Position numbers and translations under genes: made by a program. Positions 18,840-27,775 of a DNA stretch of 64,000 nt are shown in pieces. Under the pieces are notes generated by a model. The model was given only the letters and a program-made list of their open reading frames with translations. It was not told the origin of the DNA and ran no database searches. The DNA is from an uncultured Clostridia bacterium (GTDB lineage: Bacteria; Bacillota; Clostridia; TANB77; CAG-465), in the NCBI GenBank assembly GCA_947625855.1, contig CANQPW010000003.1, positions 33 to 64,032 of the forward strand, given 5' to 3'. Position 1 is the stretch's first letter; every line of letters starts with the position of its first letter.

Positions 18840-19502
18840 CTAAATATCTTCTATTTGCCAATCAATTGGTGCCATATTGTGTTCTATTAAAAACTTATTT
18901 GTTTTTGAAAAATGAGAACAGCCATCAAATCCATATTTTACCGCAAAAGGACTTGGGTGTGAAGATGTAAGTATCAAGTGTTTTGGATTAGTTATAAGAG
19001 TCTGTTTTTGCTTTGCAAAATTTCCCCATAGTAAAAATACAACAGGAGTATCTTTTTTGTTTATTTCCTCTATTATTCTATCTGTAAATATCTCCCAACC
19101 TTTTCCTTGATGTGATGCAGGTTTATCTTTTTCAACAGTTAGAACACTATTTAGCATAAGTACACCTTGTCTTGCCCATTTTAAAAGATAACCGTTATTT
19201 GGAATTTTACATCCTAAATCTCTATTAATTTCCTTATATATATTTTGCAAAGATGGTGGTACTTTAATTCCTGGATTTACAGAAAAAGCCATTCCATGTG
19301 CCTCTCCTTCTCCATGATATGGATCTTGTCCAATGATTACAACTTTCACATATTCATATGGTGTATTTTTAAGAGCAAAAAATATATTTTCTCTTGGTGG
19401 AAATATTGTCTTAGTTTTATATTCATTATCAACAAACTCATGTAGTTTTATATAATATTCTTTTTTACTTTCTTCATTTATTATATCTTTAAAATGATTC
19501 AT
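18840..19502 (-). CDS. ung: Uracil-DNA glycosylase
   Basis: GQDPYHG, LLWG and SSHPSPF motifs; 220 aa. Confidence 0.92.
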   Translation of the reverse strand: MNHFKDIINEESKKEYYIKLHEFVDNEYKTKTIFPPRENIFFALKNTPYEYVKVVIIGQDPYHGEGEAHGMAFSVNPGIKVPPSLQNIYKEINRDLGCKIPNNGYLLKWARQGVLMLNSVLTVEKDKPASHQGKGWEIFTDRIIEEINKKDTPVVFLLWGNFAKQKQTLITNPKHLILTSSHPSPFAVKYGFDGCSHFSKTNKFLIEHNMAPIDWQIEDI

Positions 19503-19505
19503 ATT

Positions 19506-19949
19506 TTAATCTTCTCCAACTTCTATATCATATTTTTCTAATATCTCATATAATTCTTTTTGATAAATAAGTTTTATACTGTCATTTACCTTCATCTCAA
19601 AATACTTTGTATCTTCTGGATTTGATTGTTTCTCATCAGGTGATACAACACTTAAATTATTTATATCAAATTTTATTAATTCATTTTTTTCATCATCAAA
19701 ATAATATTTATTTATTAATTTTTTGCTATTATTTCTTTCTTCATATATATACAAAATTTTATCTTCTGTTATATTTATATGCTTTATATTATCACTAGAA
19801 ATACTTTTTAACTCAAAATAGTTTTCCTTACTAATTAAATTATTTAGCTCTATTTTATCTTTACTTAGTAATAAAATAACTACTATTATACAAATAATAA
19901 TAAGTATTGCTATTAGAATATTTACACTATTCTTTTTTAAAAAATCCAT
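19506..19949 (-). CDS. Hypothetical N-terminally anchored membrane protein
   Basis: 147-aa ORF with one N-terminal TM (NILIAILIIICIIVVILLL). Tightly packed between the MBL hydrolase and ung. No motif recognised. Confidence 0.5.
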   Translation of the reverse strand: MDFLKKNSVNILIAILIIICIIVVILLLSKDKIELNNLISKENYFELKSISSDNIKHINITEDKILYIYEERNNSKKLINKYYFDDEKNELIKFDINNLSVVSPDEKQSNPEDTKYFEMKVNDSIKLIYQKELYEILEKYDIEVGED

Positions 19950-19962
19950 AATTCCTCCAATT

Positions 19963-20625
19963 TTATAATTTTATATTTTTTACTGCCATAAGCATTTTTA
20001 TATATCTTTTTGTTATATCAATATTTTGAGTTTTACCATGACCTGGATATATATCAATATTAGAGAAAGTATTAAATAGCCTTCTAAGTGATTCTACCAT
20101 ATCAGGAAAATCACCTGAATATAAATCACATCTACCATATGTATCCCAAAAAACTGTATCCCCAGTAAAAAGTTTCATATTATTTTTTTCTAATATACAC
20201 ATTGAGCCTGCTGTATGTCCTGGTGTATGTATTATTACGAAGTTTAAATCACCAACATTTATTTCTTCATTATCTTTTACTACTTTTACATCATTTTCAT
20301 TAATATTTTGTTTTTTTACATTTAGTAACTCTTCATAATTTTCTTGTTTTTCAAGTAATGCTTCTAAATCTTTTACATGAACTAATATTTTTGCATTTGT
20401 ATAATTTCTAACATCTGATAATGCACCCATATGGTCTGCATGTGCGTGTGTTATAATTATATATTTTACATTGCATTTTTTAGTGTTAATTTCATTTATT
20501 ATCTTTTCTGGTTCATCACCTGGATCTATTAATACTCCATTAAAAGAATCATCATATACTAAATAACAATTAGTTATATGACCTTTGCCTCCAACATTTA
20601 CCTCTATTTTATCTATATTTATCAT
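19963..20625 (-). CDS. MBL-fold metallo-hydrolase (glyoxalase II-like)
   Basis: THAHADH metal motif, HTPGHT, later GD/GH ligands. Starts 4 nt after the relA stop. Confidence 0.8.
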   Translation of the reverse strand: MINIDKIEVNVGGKGHITNCYLVYDDSFNGVLIDPGDEPEKIINEINTKKCNVKYIIITHAHADHMGALSDVRNYTNAKILVHVKDLEALLEKQENYEELLNVKKQNINENDVKVVKDNEEINVGDLNFVIIHTPGHTAGSMCILEKNNMKLFTGDTVFWDTYGRCDLYSGDFPDMVESLRRLFNTFSNIDIYPGHGKTQNIDITKRYIKMLMAVKNIKL

Positions 20626-20629
20626 TTTC

Positions 20630-22768
20630 TCACCTAACTCTTTTTACATCAAATACACTATCAATTTTTTTAAGATTTTTTATGGTAGTTTGAAGTTTTT
20701 CTATATCTTGTATAGATATATGCACATCTGTTACATTTTCTTTATCTGGCATAACTTTAGTATTAATTTCTGTAATATCTACTTTTAAATCTTTTAATAC
20801 CTTTAATATATCTGATAAAATTCCATCCCTATCATTTGCTTTTATTCTTACATGTGTTATGAAATTTGCTTTAGTTTGTTTTTTCCATTTTACATTTATT
20901 TTTCTTGTATTTATATCTAAGTTTTTCAAATTATTGCAATCTTTTCTGTGTATAGAAACACCATTTGAAAAAGTAATATATCCTACTATTTCATCTCCTG
21001 GTATTGGAGAACAACATTTTGCAAATTTTATTAAACAGTTATTTATATTTTCTACCTCAACTAAATCTTCTGTTTTTACTTTTTTACTTTTTTCTAAGCC
21101 TTTTAATTCCTTTACTTCACCTTTTTCTTTTATGCTTTCATCATATGCCTCTAACAATCTATTTATTACTTTTAAAGGTGATACACTACCAAATCCAATA
21201 TTTTCATAGCAGTCATCAAGTGAATTAAAGTTAGATTTTTTTAACATTATTTTTATATATTCATCTTTAGTTAAAATATCTTTTGAAACTCTTTGTTTTT
21301 TTAGTTGTTTTTCAAATATTTCTTTTCCTTTTAAGATATTTACTTCTCTTCCTTCTTTTTTTAGAAAAGCTGTAATTTTATTTTTTGCACTTGTAGTCTT
21401 TACATATTTTAACCAATCTCTATTTGGACCTTTTGCATTACTACTTGTTACAATTTCAACTACATCCGTATTTTCAAGTTTAGTGTTTAATGGTACCATT
21501 CTAGAGTTAATTTTTGCCCCAATCATTTTTTCTGCAACTTTTTGATGAATTGAATATGCAAAATCAATAGGTGTAGAACCTTTTGGTAATGCTTTTATAT
21601 CACCTTTTGGTGTAAATACAAAAACTTCTTCTCCAAATAATTCTACTTTCATATTCTCCAAATTTTCTGTATTATCTATTAATTCTTGCTGTATTTCTAA
21701 TGCTTTTCTAAGCCAAATTATCTTTTTATCTGCTTCACTTATTTTTTTAGATTTTTCCTTATATGAGAAATGAGCTGCAATACCTCTTTCTGCAACATTA
21801 TGCATATCCCAAGTCCTTATCTGGATTTCAAATGGTCTTCCACCTTCTCCAAATACAGTAGTATGTAAAGATTGATACATATTAGTTTTAGGAACTGCAA
21901 TATAGTCTTTAAATCTTCCAGGCATAGGTTTATACATATCATGAACTATTCCAAGTACACTATAACAATCTTTTATTGAACTTACAATAATTCTTATTGC
22001 TAATAAATCAAACAAATCATCTGCTCTACATTTTTTATCTTTCATTTTTTTGTATATGCTATAAAAATGTTTTGGTCTTCCATAAATTTCTGCTTCTATT
22101 CCTTGCTCTTTTAATACTTTTTGAACCTCATTTATTCTATCTTTTATATATTCTTCACGTTCTTGCTTTTTTTCATCTATTTGTTCTTTTACCATTTCAT
22201 ATTCTGATGGCATAAGTATTCTAAAAGAAATATCTTCAAGCTCAGATTTAACCTTTGACATACCAAGTCTGTGTGCAATTGGAGCATATATTTTTAAACA
22301 GTCTTTTGCGAGTGCAGTTTTTTTACTTTCATCTTTTATTTTTACTATATTTCTCATATTAAATAATACATCTTCAAGTTTAATAATTACTGTCCTAATA
22401 TCTTTTGCAATTGCCATAAACATATTTCTTAGTATTTCATTATCTATTTCATCTTTCTTTTTATAATTTAAATATGATAATTTATCTATTGTTTCAATTA
22501 TTTCTAATATTTCATCTCCAAATTTTTCTTTTATTTCTTCCTTATTATAACTTTTACTTTTTAAAGCTTTATATAACAAAGATGCATAAATTGATGTATC
22601 ATCAATTCTTAATAATGCTACTTCTCTTGTAACTCCTATAACATATTCTAAAGTATCTAAATCATATATATCATTACAATATTTTGCTACCTGCTCTAAT
22701 TTTTCTTTTTCATATTTTATTTTTTCTTGATTTAAAATTTTTGATACTTCATCTAATATTTCATTCAT
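20630..22768 (-). CDS. relA: Long RelA/SpoT-homologue (p)ppGpp synthetase with a degenerate hydrolase domain
   Basis: Start reset to MNEILDE (ATG 22766-22768) behind GGAGGAAG. Synthetase motifs are intact (YGRPKHFYSIYKKM, DLLAIRIIV, FKDYIAVPKTNMYQSLHTTV, EIQIRT). TGS and ACT-like C-terminus present. The N-terminal HD region has no His before residue 166. Confidence 0.85.
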   Translation of the reverse strand: MNEILDEVSKILNQEKIKYEKEKLEQVAKYCNDIYDLDTLEYVIGVTREVALLRIDDTSIYASLLYKALKSKSYNKEEIKEKFGDEILEIIETIDKLSYLNYKKKDEIDNEILRNMFMAIAKDIRTVIIKLEDVLFNMRNIVKIKDESKKTALAKDCLKIYAPIAHRLGMSKVKSELEDISFRILMPSEYEMVKEQIDEKKQEREEYIKDRINEVQKVLKEQGIEAEIYGRPKHFYSIYKKMKDKKCRADDLFDLLAIRIIVSSIKDCYSVLGIVHDMYKPMPGRFKDYIAVPKTNMYQSLHTTVFGEGGRPFEIQIRTWDMHNVAERGIAAHFSYKEKSKKISEADKKIIWLRKALEIQQELIDNTENLENMKVELFGEEVFVFTPKGDIKALPKGSTPIDFAYSIHQKVAEKMIGAKINSRMVPLNTKLENTDVVEIVTSSNAKGPNRDWLKYVKTTSAKNKITAFLKKEGREVNILKGKEIFEKQLKKQRVSKDILTKDEYIKIMLKKSNFNSLDDCYENIGFGSVSPLKVINRLLEAYDESIKEKGEVKELKGLEKSKKVKTEDLVEVENINNCLIKFAKCCSPIPGDEIVGYITFSNGVSIHRKDCNNLKNLDINTRKINVKWKKQTKANFITHVRIKANDRDGILSDILKVLKDLKVDITEINTKVMPDKENVTDVHISIQDIEKLQTTIKNLKKIDSVFDVKRVR

Positions 22769-22864
22769 AAAACTTCCTCCAACATAATGATATTTTACTA
22801 CAAATAATAAAAAAAATAAAGAAAAAAAGGACAAGTATTATAAACTCATCCTTTTTTTATTTAA

Positions 22865-25800
22865 TTACTGATTTTTAGTTTTTATCTTTAACTTTATTAC
22901 AGCTAAAATAATAACTCCAACAAACATTAAAGATAAACCTATTTTATAAAATCGAGATGTTCCAATAGCACCAGATGCTGGAAAACTAAATACTGATGTA
23001 TTTGGTAGTAATAATTCTACTCCATTTTTTACTACAAATGCTGGTGGTAAATTTTCTCCAAGTGCTGTTATATCTGGTACATTTTTTCCTGCTTCAAATA
23101 CTACCTTCCATTGTCCTTGTGGTTTTAATCTACCAAGTGCTGCTTTATCTTCTACAAGTCTATATTCTTCTCCTAATATTATTCCTTCAAATTTTACCTG
23201 TCCATCTATGTTATCTTCTCCACTTAATTTTTCTCCTACTTTTTCAAAGCATTCATTAATATTATTTGAATCTAATAACATATTATGGTCTTCATCTGTA
23301 TGATGTGTAGGATCTTTACATACTAGTCTATATAATGTAAACTTTGCTCCATTTAATGGATTTTCTTGATTTTCACTTTCTACTTTCTTAAATTCAAAAT
23401 CTACTAAACTTGATGCATTTATATATTCTACTAATTCATCATCATCTAACTTTCCACTCTCATTTGATGGTACTGTTGTAAAGTTATTTTTTCCTTCTTC
23501 TACTTCTTCTATTTTATACTCTAATCCTTTTGGTAAATTCTCTATTGTTATATTTTGTCCATGTTTTAATTTTACACTTCCAGTAGAACTTCCATCTTCA
23601 TTTTGTGTAAATTCTATTGTTCCATCCAGTGCAGGAGTCACATCATCTACAAAGCTTGACCCTTTATAATCATAGCTATCATATAACACTATATCACTTT
23701 CTGGTGTAAATGTTATTTCAAATGTCCAGTCTCTTTCTTTATCATCAGTTGTTCCAACAACTGTTTTTCTTAAATCTAATTTTACTAATTCCTGTGTAAA
23801 TTTATTTATATAATTTGCCTCATCTGTTAAACCTGCTTCTGTGATACCTGTAATTGTTCTTTCGTTTACTTCAAAATCATCATCTTCTCTTCCTGCTACA
23901 CTTACAAATTCAAATGCAGGATTTTGTATTTCATGTTCAGTAACTATATATGATGTTCCAGCACTTAATCCAGATACTAAAATTCCTTCACCATCTTTTA
24001 GTGTAAATGTTGCAGTAGCTGTATTAGTTGCATTGTCTATATTAAATTTTAGTTCTTTTATTCTCATATCAACTGTTAGTTTAAATAAAGGATCTGTATT
24101 ATCTTCATCTTTATATACTCGTATTAAATTTCCATCTGTTTTTTCAGGACCTGAATAAGCAGTTATTGTTCCATCACTATTAACTAATCTTTCTTTATAG
24201 CTATTTCCAACCCAATACACTGTTCTTTTACCATCTACATCAAGTATATATCCTTCATTATCCGTTATAACATAAGTTGTATCTGCCTCAGGAATCCATT
24301 GTGTACCATTCCAAATATATGTAAATACTATTGCTCTTTCATTTGCTATATCTCCAATTAATTTTAAATCAAATGTAAATTCTTCATTTTTTGCCTCTAA
24401 GAAATGATTTTTATCAACATTTGCTTCAACAGTTTTTGTTATAAATAACCATGTTTCTTGAACTGCTAATGCTCCATTATTTCCAAGATAAGTTATAATA
24501 CTATAATTTGAAGAATCAGCAGTAGTACCATATACAGGTGCATAATATAGTGTTGCTGTATCTGTTTCATTTTGAGATTTCAAATGTGAGTAACTTGTTA
24601 TATTTCCAACACGTTTTCCACCAACTTTTGTTGTTACTATTATACCTTCACCTGGTTCATCTACTTCAAGACGATTAGAAACATCATAATATGTTATATA
24701 TTTTTCATTATTTTCTCCAAAGAAGTCAGACCCTTTACATGATGCTGCATATTGAACTAATCTACCATCTGCCCCATCTGGTGTTTTCTCTCTTATATAA
24801 TAATCAATTGGAATATAATATGTATCATCCATATTTATTTCTTCCATAGTTTTTACTTCATCACTTAATTCGATTTCACCACCAGTTGATGTCATTTCTC
24901 CTTCTCCGCCTGAACTATTTTTATATATTTTTAGATTATTTTGAAATACATAAAATCTATTTTTCTTTGATGGTGAAAATGTTACTGATGGATTTCCAAA
25001 AGTATATCTTCTTCTGCTATCAAAATTTTCTCCACTATAATAATTTGAATAAAAGAATGACCATTCTTCACCATCTATATTTTTCAAATTTTTTAAGAAA
25101 TATTCTCTTGAAAGTCTACTTAAATCTATTTTTCCTGTACTTTTACTTATGATTTCATCAGATATTCCAACTGTATATGTAACTCTAAGTGGTAAACAAT
25201 ACTGAGTATCTGTATTTGTCTCATATCTTAATACTTTTTGAAACTCATCAACATCTATCATATCTAAGTGTATTGGAAGTGCAGAACTTGGAATATTAAT
25301 ATGCACTGCCTCACTATACAGTGAATCAATATCGTGTTCTTCATCAGTATCATAATTATCGCTATCTTCAACCCATATTCTTATATCACTCAGTTTATAT
25401 GTTATCTTAGAATCATCACCATAACTCATATTAACTCTTTCTATTGATCTGTCTTGTGTTGGTATATTTAGACGATAAAGAGTAAATACAACATTATTTA
25501 AAGCCTCATTAGACGACAAATATCCTTCCGGCAAAAATCCTTCTTGATCTTTATTACCATCAACATATTCTCGTGTAAGATAATATGTATCACCTGCAGC
25601 CCAGCTTCCTTCATCTCCTAAGTAATTTCCTTCACTATCATACCAACCATTGCCATGACCTTTCATATCAAAATTTGCATCATAAACAGCAGTTTTTACA
25701 ATTGGATAATTTTCTCCAAATAACAATAAATTAGTGATATCTTTTACTTCCATATATTTTCCAATAGGGTCTACATATGTTAGTGCATCTGTTACTCCAG

Positions 25801-27775
25801 AATCATTTTGTCCTTCAACGGGTACAAAAGCCTCAGTAAGTAGCATATCAAATACTTGATCAAATATAGTTTCTATATTTTCATCACTTGCATCAAAATA
25901 TGCATTATTAAATTTAAATTCCTCAAGAGAATTTACATCAAATTGTGCAAGATACTCTTTTGTAAACTTTTCTTCATTTTCCATATATGGATTTGCAATA
26001 TTTTGTTCTGCATAACCTCCTGATGAGATACGAACTGCATCTGCTGGACGTGGAGAATCTTTACTACTTGAGAAACTACTACTTGAACTATACCAATATA
26101 CTGACATATCTGGTGATGCGGTACTTGCAGTTATACTACCTATTGTAGGTTCAGGTAAAAGTGGAACACCTGAGTGATTTCTTATAAAATAATCGTTAGT
26201 TTCATCATATGCTTCACAATCAATAGTTGGATGAAATAATGTAAAATCATCTATATATTTTGTTCCATCATACGAGAAGAAACGTGGTTCATTACCATTT
26301 GCATATTCATTAACCATTTTATAAACATTATTTATTGTTTCTATTGTTTCTTCTGATAAATCAGAGAATGCACTTAAATCTTCAGTCAAATAGGTCTTTG
26401 GATCTAATGACAACTTTGCATTTACATTAGAAAGGCTTACACCTATTGAATATATTGCCATTTCATTTCTATAATTTGCTTCAGCGACCTTTTTCCAATA
26501 TGATGCTGTCATTAAAGGCTTTAATGAACGCAACACATCAGTCCTTGTTTGTGAACCATGCCAATTAAAATATTCATTTACATTATATGGGTAATTTTTT
26601 TGAGTTGTAACATCTTCACTTGTAGAGAATGTATTTTTTGTATCTTCACCTACTGTTCCGGGCATCCACCAAGATGCATAATCACTTGCTGTATTTGAAG
26701 CTCCATCTGAAAGAGTTACAAAAACTGGTACATAATCTACATCTTTTGTAACATAATGTGCAACTGTATTTTCTGCTTCTGCAAGCATTCTTAATCCCAA
26801 ATAATATGCTGATTGTATATTAGTTCCACCTTCTGTTGTTTGTGATATTGTTACAATATTATCATCATTATCATCTTTATTTTCACCATTTACTTTATCC
26901 AAATTATAGTCTTTTGCATGTGTAACAACATCTGATGAAGTACTTGGTTTATATTTGAACGTTATAACTCTACCATAGCCATATTCTCTTGTATCATTAT
27001 ATATTGCACCTTCTTCACCATAATATCCTTGACTTTCACTATCAAGATCTGGCCATCCTCCTGATACAGTTAAGTATTTATACTCTATATCATCTGAGCC
27101 CGATTTACTCATTCTTGAATATGTTATTGTTTGTCCTTCTTTACCATCTACATTTACATTTGTTAACTCAACTACACCATTTTTATCTATAAAAGTACCT
27201 GCACTCTCATAGTGATCAAGTGGTATTAAAGTATATGCATTATCATCAAATAATACAATTCCAACTCTGTTATATGGACTTAATTCCATAAGATTTGTTA
27301 TCATTTTATCAGCAGCTTTTATTACTAAACTCATTCTACTATCAGAGTCATCACCTGAATACATAGAACTTGAAACATCAATTATCATAACTAAATCTAT
27401 TGGTACAGGTGGATATTCAGTTACAACTTGACTTGAACCTAAAGCAGAAAAAACATGCAAGAAATCTTCATTGTAACTTATATCAAATTTTTCATCTAAA
27501 GTAACTACATTAGGATTATTAGTACCATCATGAGCAAAAACTGACTTATCAGACCAAACACGACCATTATAACGGCCACCAACTGTTGGATTTGATACTA
27601 CACTTTTATAGTCATCTACTGTACTAGAATCAGCAATTCTAAGTACTTTTTCATCTGTTAAATCAGAATGTAATGCCAAATCTTTATCATTCATTGCACT
27701 AACAATAAAAATTGCAACACTAAAAATTAATAAAACTATACCAACCGTAAAAAAACTTAACCTTTTCTTTTTCAT
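22865..27775 (-). CDS. Giant VWA/MIDAS surface adhesin, paralog 1 (candidate pilus-tip or wall-anchored adhesin)
   Basis: 1636 aa. Signal peptide, then DLVMIIDVSSSM (DxSxS MIDAS start of a VWA domain), then a long beta-rich stalk. C-terminal Cna-B/SpaA-like modules (NPLNGAKFTLYRL, EEYRLVEDKA). C-terminal hydrophobic helix plus basic tail, preceded by LPNTS...FPASG. Confidence 0.8.
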   Translation of the reverse strand: MKKKRLSFFTVGIVLLIFSVAIFIVSAMNDKDLALHSDLTDEKVLRIADSSTVDDYKSVVSNPTVGGRYNGRVWSDKSVFAHDGTNNPNVVTLDEKFDISYNEDFLHVFSALGSSQVVTEYPPVPIDLVMIIDVSSSMYSGDDSDSRMSLVIKAADKMITNLMELSPYNRVGIVLFDDNAYTLIPLDHYESAGTFIDKNGVVELTNVNVDGKEGQTITYSRMSKSGSDDIEYKYLTVSGGWPDLDSESQGYYGEEGAIYNDTREYGYGRVITFKYKPSTSSDVVTHAKDYNLDKVNGENKDDNDDNIVTISQTTEGGTNIQSAYYLGLRMLAEAENTVAHYVTKDVDYVPVFVTLSDGASNTASDYASWWMPGTVGEDTKNTFSTSEDVTTQKNYPYNVNEYFNWHGSQTRTDVLRSLKPLMTASYWKKVAEANYRNEMAIYSIGVSLSNVNAKLSLDPKTYLTEDLSAFSDLSEETIETINNVYKMVNEYANGNEPRFFSYDGTKYIDDFTLFHPTIDCEAYDETNDYFIRNHSGVPLLPEPTIGSITASTASPDMSVYWYSSSSSFSSSKDSPRPADAVRISSGGYAEQNIANPYMENEEKFTKEYLAQFDVNSLEEFKFNNAYFDASDENIETIFDQVFDMLLTEAFVPVEGQNDSGVTDALTYVDPIGKYMEVKDITNLLLFGENYPIVKTAVYDANFDMKGHGNGWYDSEGNYLGDEGSWAAGDTYYLTREYVDGNKDQEGFLPEGYLSSNEALNNVVFTLYRLNIPTQDRSIERVNMSYGDDSKITYKLSDIRIWVEDSDNYDTDEEHDIDSLYSEAVHINIPSSALPIHLDMIDVDEFQKVLRYETNTDTQYCLPLRVTYTVGISDEIISKSTGKIDLSRLSREYFLKNLKNIDGEEWSFFYSNYYSGENFDSRRRYTFGNPSVTFSPSKKNRFYVFQNNLKIYKNSSGGEGEMTSTGGEIELSDEVKTMEEINMDDTYYIPIDYYIREKTPDGADGRLVQYAASCKGSDFFGENNEKYITYYDVSNRLEVDEPGEGIIVTTKVGGKRVGNITSYSHLKSQNETDTATLYYAPVYGTTADSSNYSIITYLGNNGALAVQETWLFITKTVEANVDKNHFLEAKNEEFTFDLKLIGDIANERAIVFTYIWNGTQWIPEADTTYVITDNEGYILDVDGKRTVYWVGNSYKERLVNSDGTITAYSGPEKTDGNLIRVYKDEDNTDPLFKLTVDMRIKELKFNIDNATNTATATFTLKDGEGILVSGLSAGTSYIVTEHEIQNPAFEFVSVAGREDDDFEVNERTITGITEAGLTDEANYINKFTQELVKLDLRKTVVGTTDDKERDWTFEITFTPESDIVLYDSYDYKGSSFVDDVTPALDGTIEFTQNEDGSSTGSVKLKHGQNITIENLPKGLEYKIEEVEEGKNNFTTVPSNESGKLDDDELVEYINASSLVDFEFKKVESENQENPLNGAKFTLYRLVCKDPTHHTDEDHNMLLDSNNINECFEKVGEKLSGEDNIDGQVKFEGIILGEEYRLVEDKAALGRLKPQGQWKVVFEAGKNVPDITALGENLPPAFVVKNGVELLLPNTSVFSFPASGAIGTSRFYKIGLSLMFVGVIILAVIKLKIKTKNQ
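23141..23618. repeat. 478-nt block perfectly identical to 28285..28762 (inside the two VWA paralogs)
   Basis: Compared line by line at a constant offset of 5144 nt with no mismatch found. Flanks on both sides show scattered substitutions. Confidence 0.85.

Follow-up and report, generated by a model that had tools for sequence, protein, structure and literature searches.

We analysed a 64,000-nucleotide (nt) stretch of DNA from an uncultured Clostridia bacterium (assembly GCA_947625855.1, contig CANQPW010000003.1, positions 33 to 64,032; hereafter the window), focusing on its gene for a long RelA/SpoT homologue (RSH). This gene, rel, lies at 20630..22768 of the minus strand and encodes a protein of 712 amino acids (aa), as established from the open reading frame (ORF) and its translation, from Pfam and from TIGR00691. 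Its frame opens with ATG at 22768, runs for 712 codons and ends at 20630; direct reading of the sequence places a Shine-Dalgarno element, GGAGG, at 22776..22780 (minus strand), 7 nt 5' of the ATG. All five Pfam domains are matched in the order HD_4, RelA_SpoT, TGS, RelA_AH_RIS and ACT_4, which is the long-RSH architecture with a pseudo-HD in first place (pseudo-HD, SYNTH, TGS, AH/RIS or ZFD, ACT or RRM), and the protein scores 665.8 bits against the NCBIfam RelA/SpoT subfamily model TIGR00691 (cut-off 499.2). On the minus strand, the pseudo-hydrolase (HD) domain occupies 22199..22768 (residues 1-190; HD_4, 90 bits), with the fold retained and the active site gone. It is followed by the (p)ppGpp synthetase domain at 21749..22081 (residues 230-340; RelA_SpoT, 143 bits over the whole profile length), the TGS domain at 21446..21625 (residues 382-441; Pfam TGS, 82.7 bits) and the C-terminal ACT/RRM domain at 20639..20872 (residues 633-710; Pfam ACT_4, 57 bits).

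The original prediction, made from the letters of the window, was that this Rel has lost every His/Asp ligand of its hydrolase site while keeping an intact synthetase, and that its first 165 residues contain no histidine. The first histidine is indeed residue 166, in APIAHRLG. An alignment to known Rel proteins had been suggested as a check, and we compared the protein by HMMER with Rel of B. subtilis (6yxa, 8acu), Rel of S. aureus (7oiw) and RelSeq (1vj7). Residues 44-146 align to all three without a gap, and query residue i therefore corresponds to RelSeq residue i+11. Among the four Mn ligands, H53, H77 and D78 are replaced by Y42, Y66 and K67, and D144 is kept as D133. Both members of the catalytic pair are substituted as well (E81 by K70, D82 by S71), and within the remaining active-site motif R145, H147 and T151 read V134, F136 and N140, with N148 kept as N137. 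The alignment thus upholds the dead hydrolase site but amends the claim of complete ligand loss, since one metal ligand of four is still present, as is N148. Put in terms of the positions that define a bifunctional Rel[HS] (H53, H77, D78, D144 and E81/D82), D144 alone remains.

At the level of motifs, LLYKALKSK (residues 64-72; 22553..22579, minus strand) stands in place of LLHDVVEDT, without a gap opposite (F/L)LHDVVEDT in the four solved Rel structures, and KLEDVLFNMRN (residues 130-140; 22349..22381, minus strand) stands in place of KLADRLHNMRT, with EDVLFNMRN gap-free opposite ADRLHNMRT. The HP motif had been assigned to IGV, a register two residues off: the alignments put H53-P54 at Y42-V43 of EYVIGV (residues 41-46; 22631..22648, minus strand), and the same columns read DHVIGV or EHVLGV in close relatives. 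Just upstream of EYVIGV, a 7-residue deletion takes out the EGQxRKS segment with R44 and K45; among 18 aligned sequences this deletion is seen in the window's genome only.

The synthetase half is conserved, as had been predicted. GRPKH, DLLAIR, RFKD, YQSLHTTV and EIQIRT are all found, and alignment to B. subtilis Rel and E. coli RelA places GRPKH, D264 of DLLAxR, YQSLHT and E323 of ExQIRT in register. RFKD (in GRFKDYIAVPK) is of the RXKD type of bifunctional Rel. Sajish et al. reportedly set this basic RXKD motif of the bifunctional Rel synthetase against an acidic EXDD in RelA.

In an AlphaFold2 model of residues 1-385, the predicted local distance difference test score (pLDDT) is 81-92 across most of the HD domain, and the model superposes on the N-terminal domains of S. 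aureus and B. subtilis Rel with a template modelling (TM) score of 0.83-0.88 and a root-mean-square deviation of 2.5-3.4 Å. The HD domain is thus predicted to remain folded as a pseudo-enzyme and not to be a remnant in decay. Mean pairwise identity within the window's genus is 0.58 for the HD domain versus 0.80 for synthetase plus TGS, while in the sister families of the same order the two parts are conserved equally (HD 0.73, synthetase 0.77). None of the full-length Rel recovered from the GTDB family (n = 42) has a stop codon or a domain-scale deletion. As far as these sequences tell, constraint on the family's HD domain is relaxed, yet the domain is maintained. At one locus of the family (L164, G077:C19:10029-11037) Rel is divided into a 194-aa HD ORF and a 552-aa remainder.

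We then tabulated the HD columns of 69 Rel from the family (six genera) and, from four sister families within the same order, of another 16 Rel. Every one of the 49 Rel of the window's genus has a degenerate HD site, and so has every one of the 20 Rel from the family's five other genera. Hence, the degenerate site of the window's Rel is neither chance nor sequencing error. All 16 sister-family Rel have an intact site, reading R-K-Y-H-P-H-D-E-D-T-D-R-H-N-T. In a sample of 201 genomes of the order, the divergent N-terminal type is restricted to this family, whose members give E-values of 1e-37 or better with alignments starting at residue 1-11 (a few truncated or split ORFs excepted); Rel of the other families of the order give E-values of 1e-25 to 1e-34 with alignments starting at about residue 45. 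In a tree built on the non-HD columns, the family is a single clade with full support, the members of which are all degenerate, and the sister-family Rel are all intact. Because the family forms one fully supported clade outside the HD columns, the simplest history is a single loss of the site in the common ancestor of the GTDB family, with further decay in separate lineages.

The course of this decay can be followed in patterns of seven positions (H53, H77, D78, E81, D82, D144 and N148 in RelSeq numbering). H53, H77, E78, K81, F/Y82, D144 and N148 are common to the five other genera and to part of the window's genus, and H-H-E-K-F/Y-D-N is the ancestral pattern of the family. Other clades in the window's genus have reached H-H-G-K-C-D-N, and in one clade of 17 Rel all seven positions are gone (F-Y-P-D-Y-E-Y). 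The window's Rel, Y-Y-K-K-S-D-N, is a singular state, with H-H-G-K-C-D-N in its nearest relatives (G003 and G065). H53Y and H77Y are each a single CAT->TAT transition, by which the last two active-site histidines of this Rel turned into tyrosine, and G78K is GGA->AAA; each of these changes goes towards AT, the direction expected at unconstrained sites when a genome is low in GC. The series H-H-E-K-F-D-N -> H-H-G-K-C-D-N -> total loss amounts to a natural experiment on which parts of the pseudo-HD the synthetase still needs.

The residues that persist could be taken to mean that the degenerate HD of the window's Rel has rebuilt its active site and continues to hydrolyse (p)ppGpp. D133 (D144) and N137 (N148) are kept, and the ancestral H-H-E...D-N retains four possible metal ligands, conserved across five genera, which hints at a retained function in relatives. 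For the window's Rel we find this scarcely credible. Of the four ligands the protein retains one, and it lacks the R44/K45 loop and both catalytic acids; its HD domain evolves fast, with a terminal branch of 0.46 versus 0.14 in its closest relative; and in one clade all seven positions have disappeared, D144 and N148 included.

The textbook view is that Bacillota have one bifunctional Rel, the hydrolase of which is indispensable as the only way of (p)ppGpp removal, and that only Beta- and Gammaproteobacteria divide synthesis and hydrolysis between RelA and SpoT. The Rel described here combines features of both arrangements. It nests among the Rel of Clostridia, with intact sister-family Rel as nearest outgroup, and the bifunctional Rel of Bacillota (6yxa/8acu, 7oiw, RelSeq 1vj7) are nearest to it in sequence and in predicted fold, with equal domain order and equal synthetase motifs. 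Unlike them, it has H53, H77, D78, E81 and D82 substituted and the R44/K45 loop deleted, and with these changes the hydrolase half-reaction that defines such enzymes would be missing. With monofunctional RelA[hS] of Beta- and Gammaproteobacteria (E. coli RelA; 5iqr, 5kpv) it shares the full long-RSH architecture, including a dead but folded HD that evolves faster than the synthetase and stands beside an intact synthetase and ribosome-sensing C-terminal domains; the whole-protein similarity to E. coli RelA amounts to 489 bits. Unlike RelA, it arose independently inside the Firmicute Rel clade, it carries RXKD (RFKD) and not EXDD, and it has no SpoT paralogue, being the sole long RSH of its genome. 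Its structure-based identity with Rel of B. subtilis and of S. aureus is 40-42%, versus 33-34% with RelA. The window's Rel also stays below the cut-offs of the RelA equivalog NF008124 (534.7 bits, cut-off 728) and of the SpoT equivalog NF008303 (517.9 bits, cut-off 947), and for SpoT its HD site is degenerate as well. Overall, the synthetase-only Rel of the original prediction is well supported by sequence, fold and phylogeny, as a full-length long RSH of the Rel lineage whose hydrolase site is dead and whose synthetase is intact. Full-text searches of the literature turned up no account of a Clostridia Rel that is hydrolase-dead. The Clostridia are classed as Rel[HS], often with a small alarmone synthetase (SAS) in addition, by Atkinson et al. 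2011 (PMC3153485), who treat hydrolase loss for RelA[hS] only; the passages of Jimmy et al. 2020 (PMC7229694) that the search retrieved contain no such case.

If this Rel only synthesizes (p)ppGpp, another enzyme or route would have to remove it, and the original prediction had suggested searching the full genome for a small alarmone hydrolase (SAH) or a second long RSH. The host genome comprises 1.31 Mb in 73 contigs (98% complete, ~26% GC). The whole-genome search found neither a second long RSH nor an SAS in it, the SYNTH domain count being one; a second SYNTH match (RelA_SpoT, 14.9 bits) in a 572-aa protein on contig C8 has no supporting Pfam domain and was rejected as an RSH. The search did return one stand-alone RSH-type HD candidate with a complete catalytic set. 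This further HD_4 protein of the genome (556 aa, G000:C6:3501-5168, on a contig separate from the window; HD_4 70.6 bits, cut-off 27.2) carries two HD_4 domains behind an N-terminal part that is all-helical, and we refer to it as the tandem-HD protein. Its first domain, HD1, reads HEGQFRKGGQPYIIHP ... LLHDVIED ... KLNDRTDN and retains R44, K45, H53, H77, D78, E81, D82, D144 and N148, that is, all catalytic and ppGpp-binding positions. Across 25 diverse homologues H180, R185, H194, P195, H219, D220, E223, D286 and N290 (numbering of the tandem-HD protein) are invariant and D224 nearly so, and the second domain, HD2, is invariantly degenerate (LLHEVFKK, SNRANT).

The tandem-HD protein fits the description of an SAH, namely a stand-alone RSH-type HD with a complete catalytic set and without SYNTH. 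Like the known SAHs (Mesh1, P. aeruginosa SAH 6yvc, C. glutamicum RelH 7qoc and T. denticola SAH 7p1y) and Aph1 (7smg), it has the full H...HP...HD..ED...D..N set; unlike SAHs, it has two HDs, the second of them degenerate (HE..K, N-R..T), and its 550-aa forms bear an added 150-aa helical N-terminal domain. The solved sequences closest to HD1 are hydrolase domains of long RSHs (S. aureus Rel, 65.6 bits), versus 30 bits or less for classical SAHs, Mesh1 and the (p)ppApp hydrolase Aph1. In a model of the protein (pLDDT 89), the fold matches of probability 1.0 are all Rel hydrolase domains, SAHs, Mesh1 or the (p)ppApp hydrolase. A domain tree traces the tandem to an internal duplication within a single-HD ancestor, which persists in a sister family beside intact Rel. 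A recent fission of the Rel HD as its source was rejected because stand-alone HDs group outside the order's Rel clade in this tree and because the single-HD relative coexists with intact Rel. More than 370 homologues occur in metagenomes, named at most 'HD domain-containing protein', and a literature search found no paper mentioning a tandem-HD SAH. Of the proteins encoded in the host genome, the tandem-HD protein is the best candidate for a (p)ppGpp hydrolase. On the same contig C6, a gene for a 117-aa HPF/RaiA-like ribosome hibernation factor (locus L004, 2692-3045, minus strand) lies convergently ~30 nt past the tandem-HD gene, and an ATP-binding cassette (ABC) transporter ATPase gene lies upstream of it.

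Together, we consider it probable that the window encodes a RelA-like synthetase of the Rel lineage with a folded pseudo-HD, that (p)ppGpp is removed in trans by the tandem-HD protein, and that the metallo-β-lactamase (MBL)-fold protein encoded next to rel is unrelated to this task. Under this explanation the window's Rel would act like E. coli RelA, as a ribosome- and tRNA-sensing (p)ppGpp synthetase, the pseudo-HD would persist as a structural or allosteric need of the synthetase, as in RelA, and removal of (p)ppGpp in the host would take place in trans, most likely through the tandem-HD protein on contig C6. Sinha and Winther 2021 (PMC8012599) argue that synthesis by RelA is switched through its pseudo-HD, and by analogy such a role is the most likely reason for retention of the HD fold here. 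If true, the only long RSH of a Firmicute lineage has independently been made RelA-like and would form, with its tandem-HD partner, a second, convergent split of synthesis and hydrolysis.

Several observations weigh against this explanation. The loss of hydrolysis by the window's Rel is inferred from residues only, with D144 and N148 still present, and all genomes compared are metagenome bins. The fold of the tandem-HD protein fits the (p)ppApp hydrolase (7smg, TM 0.8) and Mesh1 as well as it fits SAHs, and on these modelled matches (7smg, 5vxa) its substrate may alternatively be (p)ppApp or NADPH. The step in trans is the weak one. A dead Rel is present in 72 of 79 family genomes; at least one stand-alone HD_4 protein accompanies it in 32 of the 72, and none was found in the other 40. 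The stand-alone HD_4 proteins of the family are of at least four unrelated types (tandem-HD proteins, proteins of 161-188 aa, proteins of 459-680 aa, and singletons), and their presence varies between near-identical relatives, e.g. G047 and G042 versus G048. Stand-alone HD_4 proteins cannot, then, be the general solution of the lineage. Incompleteness of the assemblies was rejected as the cause of the absent hydrolases, because completeness is 96% or higher in more than 20 of the 40 genomes and because repeat searches, at E <= 10 and with the SAH of a close relative as query, gave no hydrolase. The earlier expectation that the organism needs another hydrolase such as an SAH is thus borne out in the host genome, where a candidate exists, but does not extend to the lineage: with 40 of 72 species-level dead-Rel genomes lacking a stand-alone HD_4 protein, an SAH is not obligatory there.

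Some of these relatives also encode an SAS. RelQ/RelP-like SAS (226-264 aa, 100-111 bits; e.g. G058:C3:174182-174544 and G003:C26:41130-41495) occur in ~20 of the 79 family genomes and are concentrated in the clade with the completely erased Rel HD site. A dead Rel is combined with an SAS and with no HD_4 hydrolase in nine genomes (G005, G006, G008, G015, G018, G050, G056, G058 and G059). Five of the nine were searched again (at E <= 10, and with the SAH of a close relative as query), and only Rel itself and one false match, a weak one in G005 that belongs to a WhiA-like protein, were returned. We tentatively suggest, while regarding it as somewhat short of probable, that this family of small-genome gut Clostridia runs (p)ppGpp without an RSH-type hydrolase, which would call for an unrecognised non-RSH enzyme or turnover route.

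Nudix enzymes of other bacteria, namely NahA, MutT/NudG and Ndx8, are known to degrade (p)ppGpp. One could therefore suppose that Nudix proteins of this kind (NahA, MutT, NudG, Ndx8), an undescribed enzyme or simple dilution clears (p)ppGpp, and that the tandem-HD protein has another job, such as hydrolysis of (p)ppApp or NADPH. The 40 dead-Rel genomes without a stand-alone HD_4 protein, nine of them with an SAS, are consistent with this, as are the six Nudix genes and the one Ppx/GppA-like gene of the host genome and the resemblance of the tandem-HD fold to the (p)ppApp hydrolase and Mesh1. However, none of the Nudix proteins of the host is tied to alarmones, and HD1 of the tandem-HD protein is nearest to long-RSH hydrolase domains and keeps the ppGpp-binding R44/K45. 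We consider such turnover rather unlikely as the alternative to a tandem-HD hydrolase acting in trans. With no RSH hydrolase found in most relatives, the question of what else degrades (p)ppGpp becomes testable on a defined set of ~1.3-Mb genomes, and comparative genomics of the family could identify such an enzyme or route. Public records place close relatives of the host (uncultured Clostridia / Clostridium sp. CAG:921) in the gut of human, mouse, rabbit and ruminant.

Two further arrangements were seen elsewhere in the family. In genus g16, five genomes that are 94-100% complete (G082, G083, G085, G089 and G092) have no Rel and no SYNTH domain, and each keeps one HD_4 protein of ~251 aa (e.g. 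G083:C4:111276-111677); they are hydrolase-only genomes within a family that is otherwise synthetase-only. In genus g14, the dead Rel is accompanied by an ORF of 314 aa (locus L158, G074:C23:8450-9376) whose HD site, RQYHPHDEDTDRHNT, is of the Rel type and fully intact. It is followed by a synthetase remnant broken by TAA, and the whole looks like a second long RSH decaying to a hydrolase-only protein.

The gene directly downstream of rel had been put forward as a hydrolase candidate by position. It encodes an MBL-fold hydrolase of 220 aa (19963..20625, minus strand; Lactamase_B, 93 bits), and its start lies 4 nt past the rel stop. The protein has an HxHxDH site, in the form THAHADH. Its best solved relatives are 7l0b, 7ev5, 2xf4 and 2zwr (E 1e-20 to 1e-26 for 7l0b, 2xf4 and 2zwr), the nearest being glyoxalase II enzymes of the YcbL/GloB type; against the GloB equivalog TIGR03413 it reaches 92.7 bits, below the cut-off of 200.8. 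Within the family, Rel is followed by an MBL gene at nearly every locus examined, and its orthologue is directly downstream of an intact Rel in all six sister-family loci with the downstream region captured. The neighbourhood of Rel and then MBL gene is thus shared with sister-family Rel, and since it also occurs beside intact Rel, the adjacency predates the hydrolase loss.

One could expect from the tight operon position, the intact metal site and the near-constant presence downstream of rel in the family that the MBL-fold protein is a (p)ppGpp hydrolase replacing the lost HD activity, and the protein matches the Apyc1 nucleotide phosphodiesterase family very weakly (E 0.005; 16.8 bits, cut-off 50). 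We regard this as very unlikely. The adjacency is older than the loss, as the six sister-family loci indicate; thioesterases of the glyoxalase II / YcbL type head its family and structure matches; and our literature search turned up no MBL-fold (p)ppGpp hydrolase, nor do we know of one. The positional argument for this gene therefore falls away, and the MBL gene is probably an ancestral operon partner, glyoxalase-II-like and unrelated to alarmone turnover.

A terminator-like hairpin at 22822..22858 (minus strand) separates rel from the surface-protein gene upstream and is the sole terminator-like site within 19400-23000. Because it precedes rel, rel and the MBL gene probably form their own transcription unit. 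The upstream gene (22865-27775, minus strand) encodes a surface protein of 1636 aa whose C terminus carries an LPXTG-like sorting signal; in relatives recJ occupies this position. On the other side, a gene at 19506-19949 (minus strand) between the MBL gene and ung encodes a 147-aa protein with a single transmembrane helix at its N terminus and without any family match, and ung itself follows at 18840-19502.

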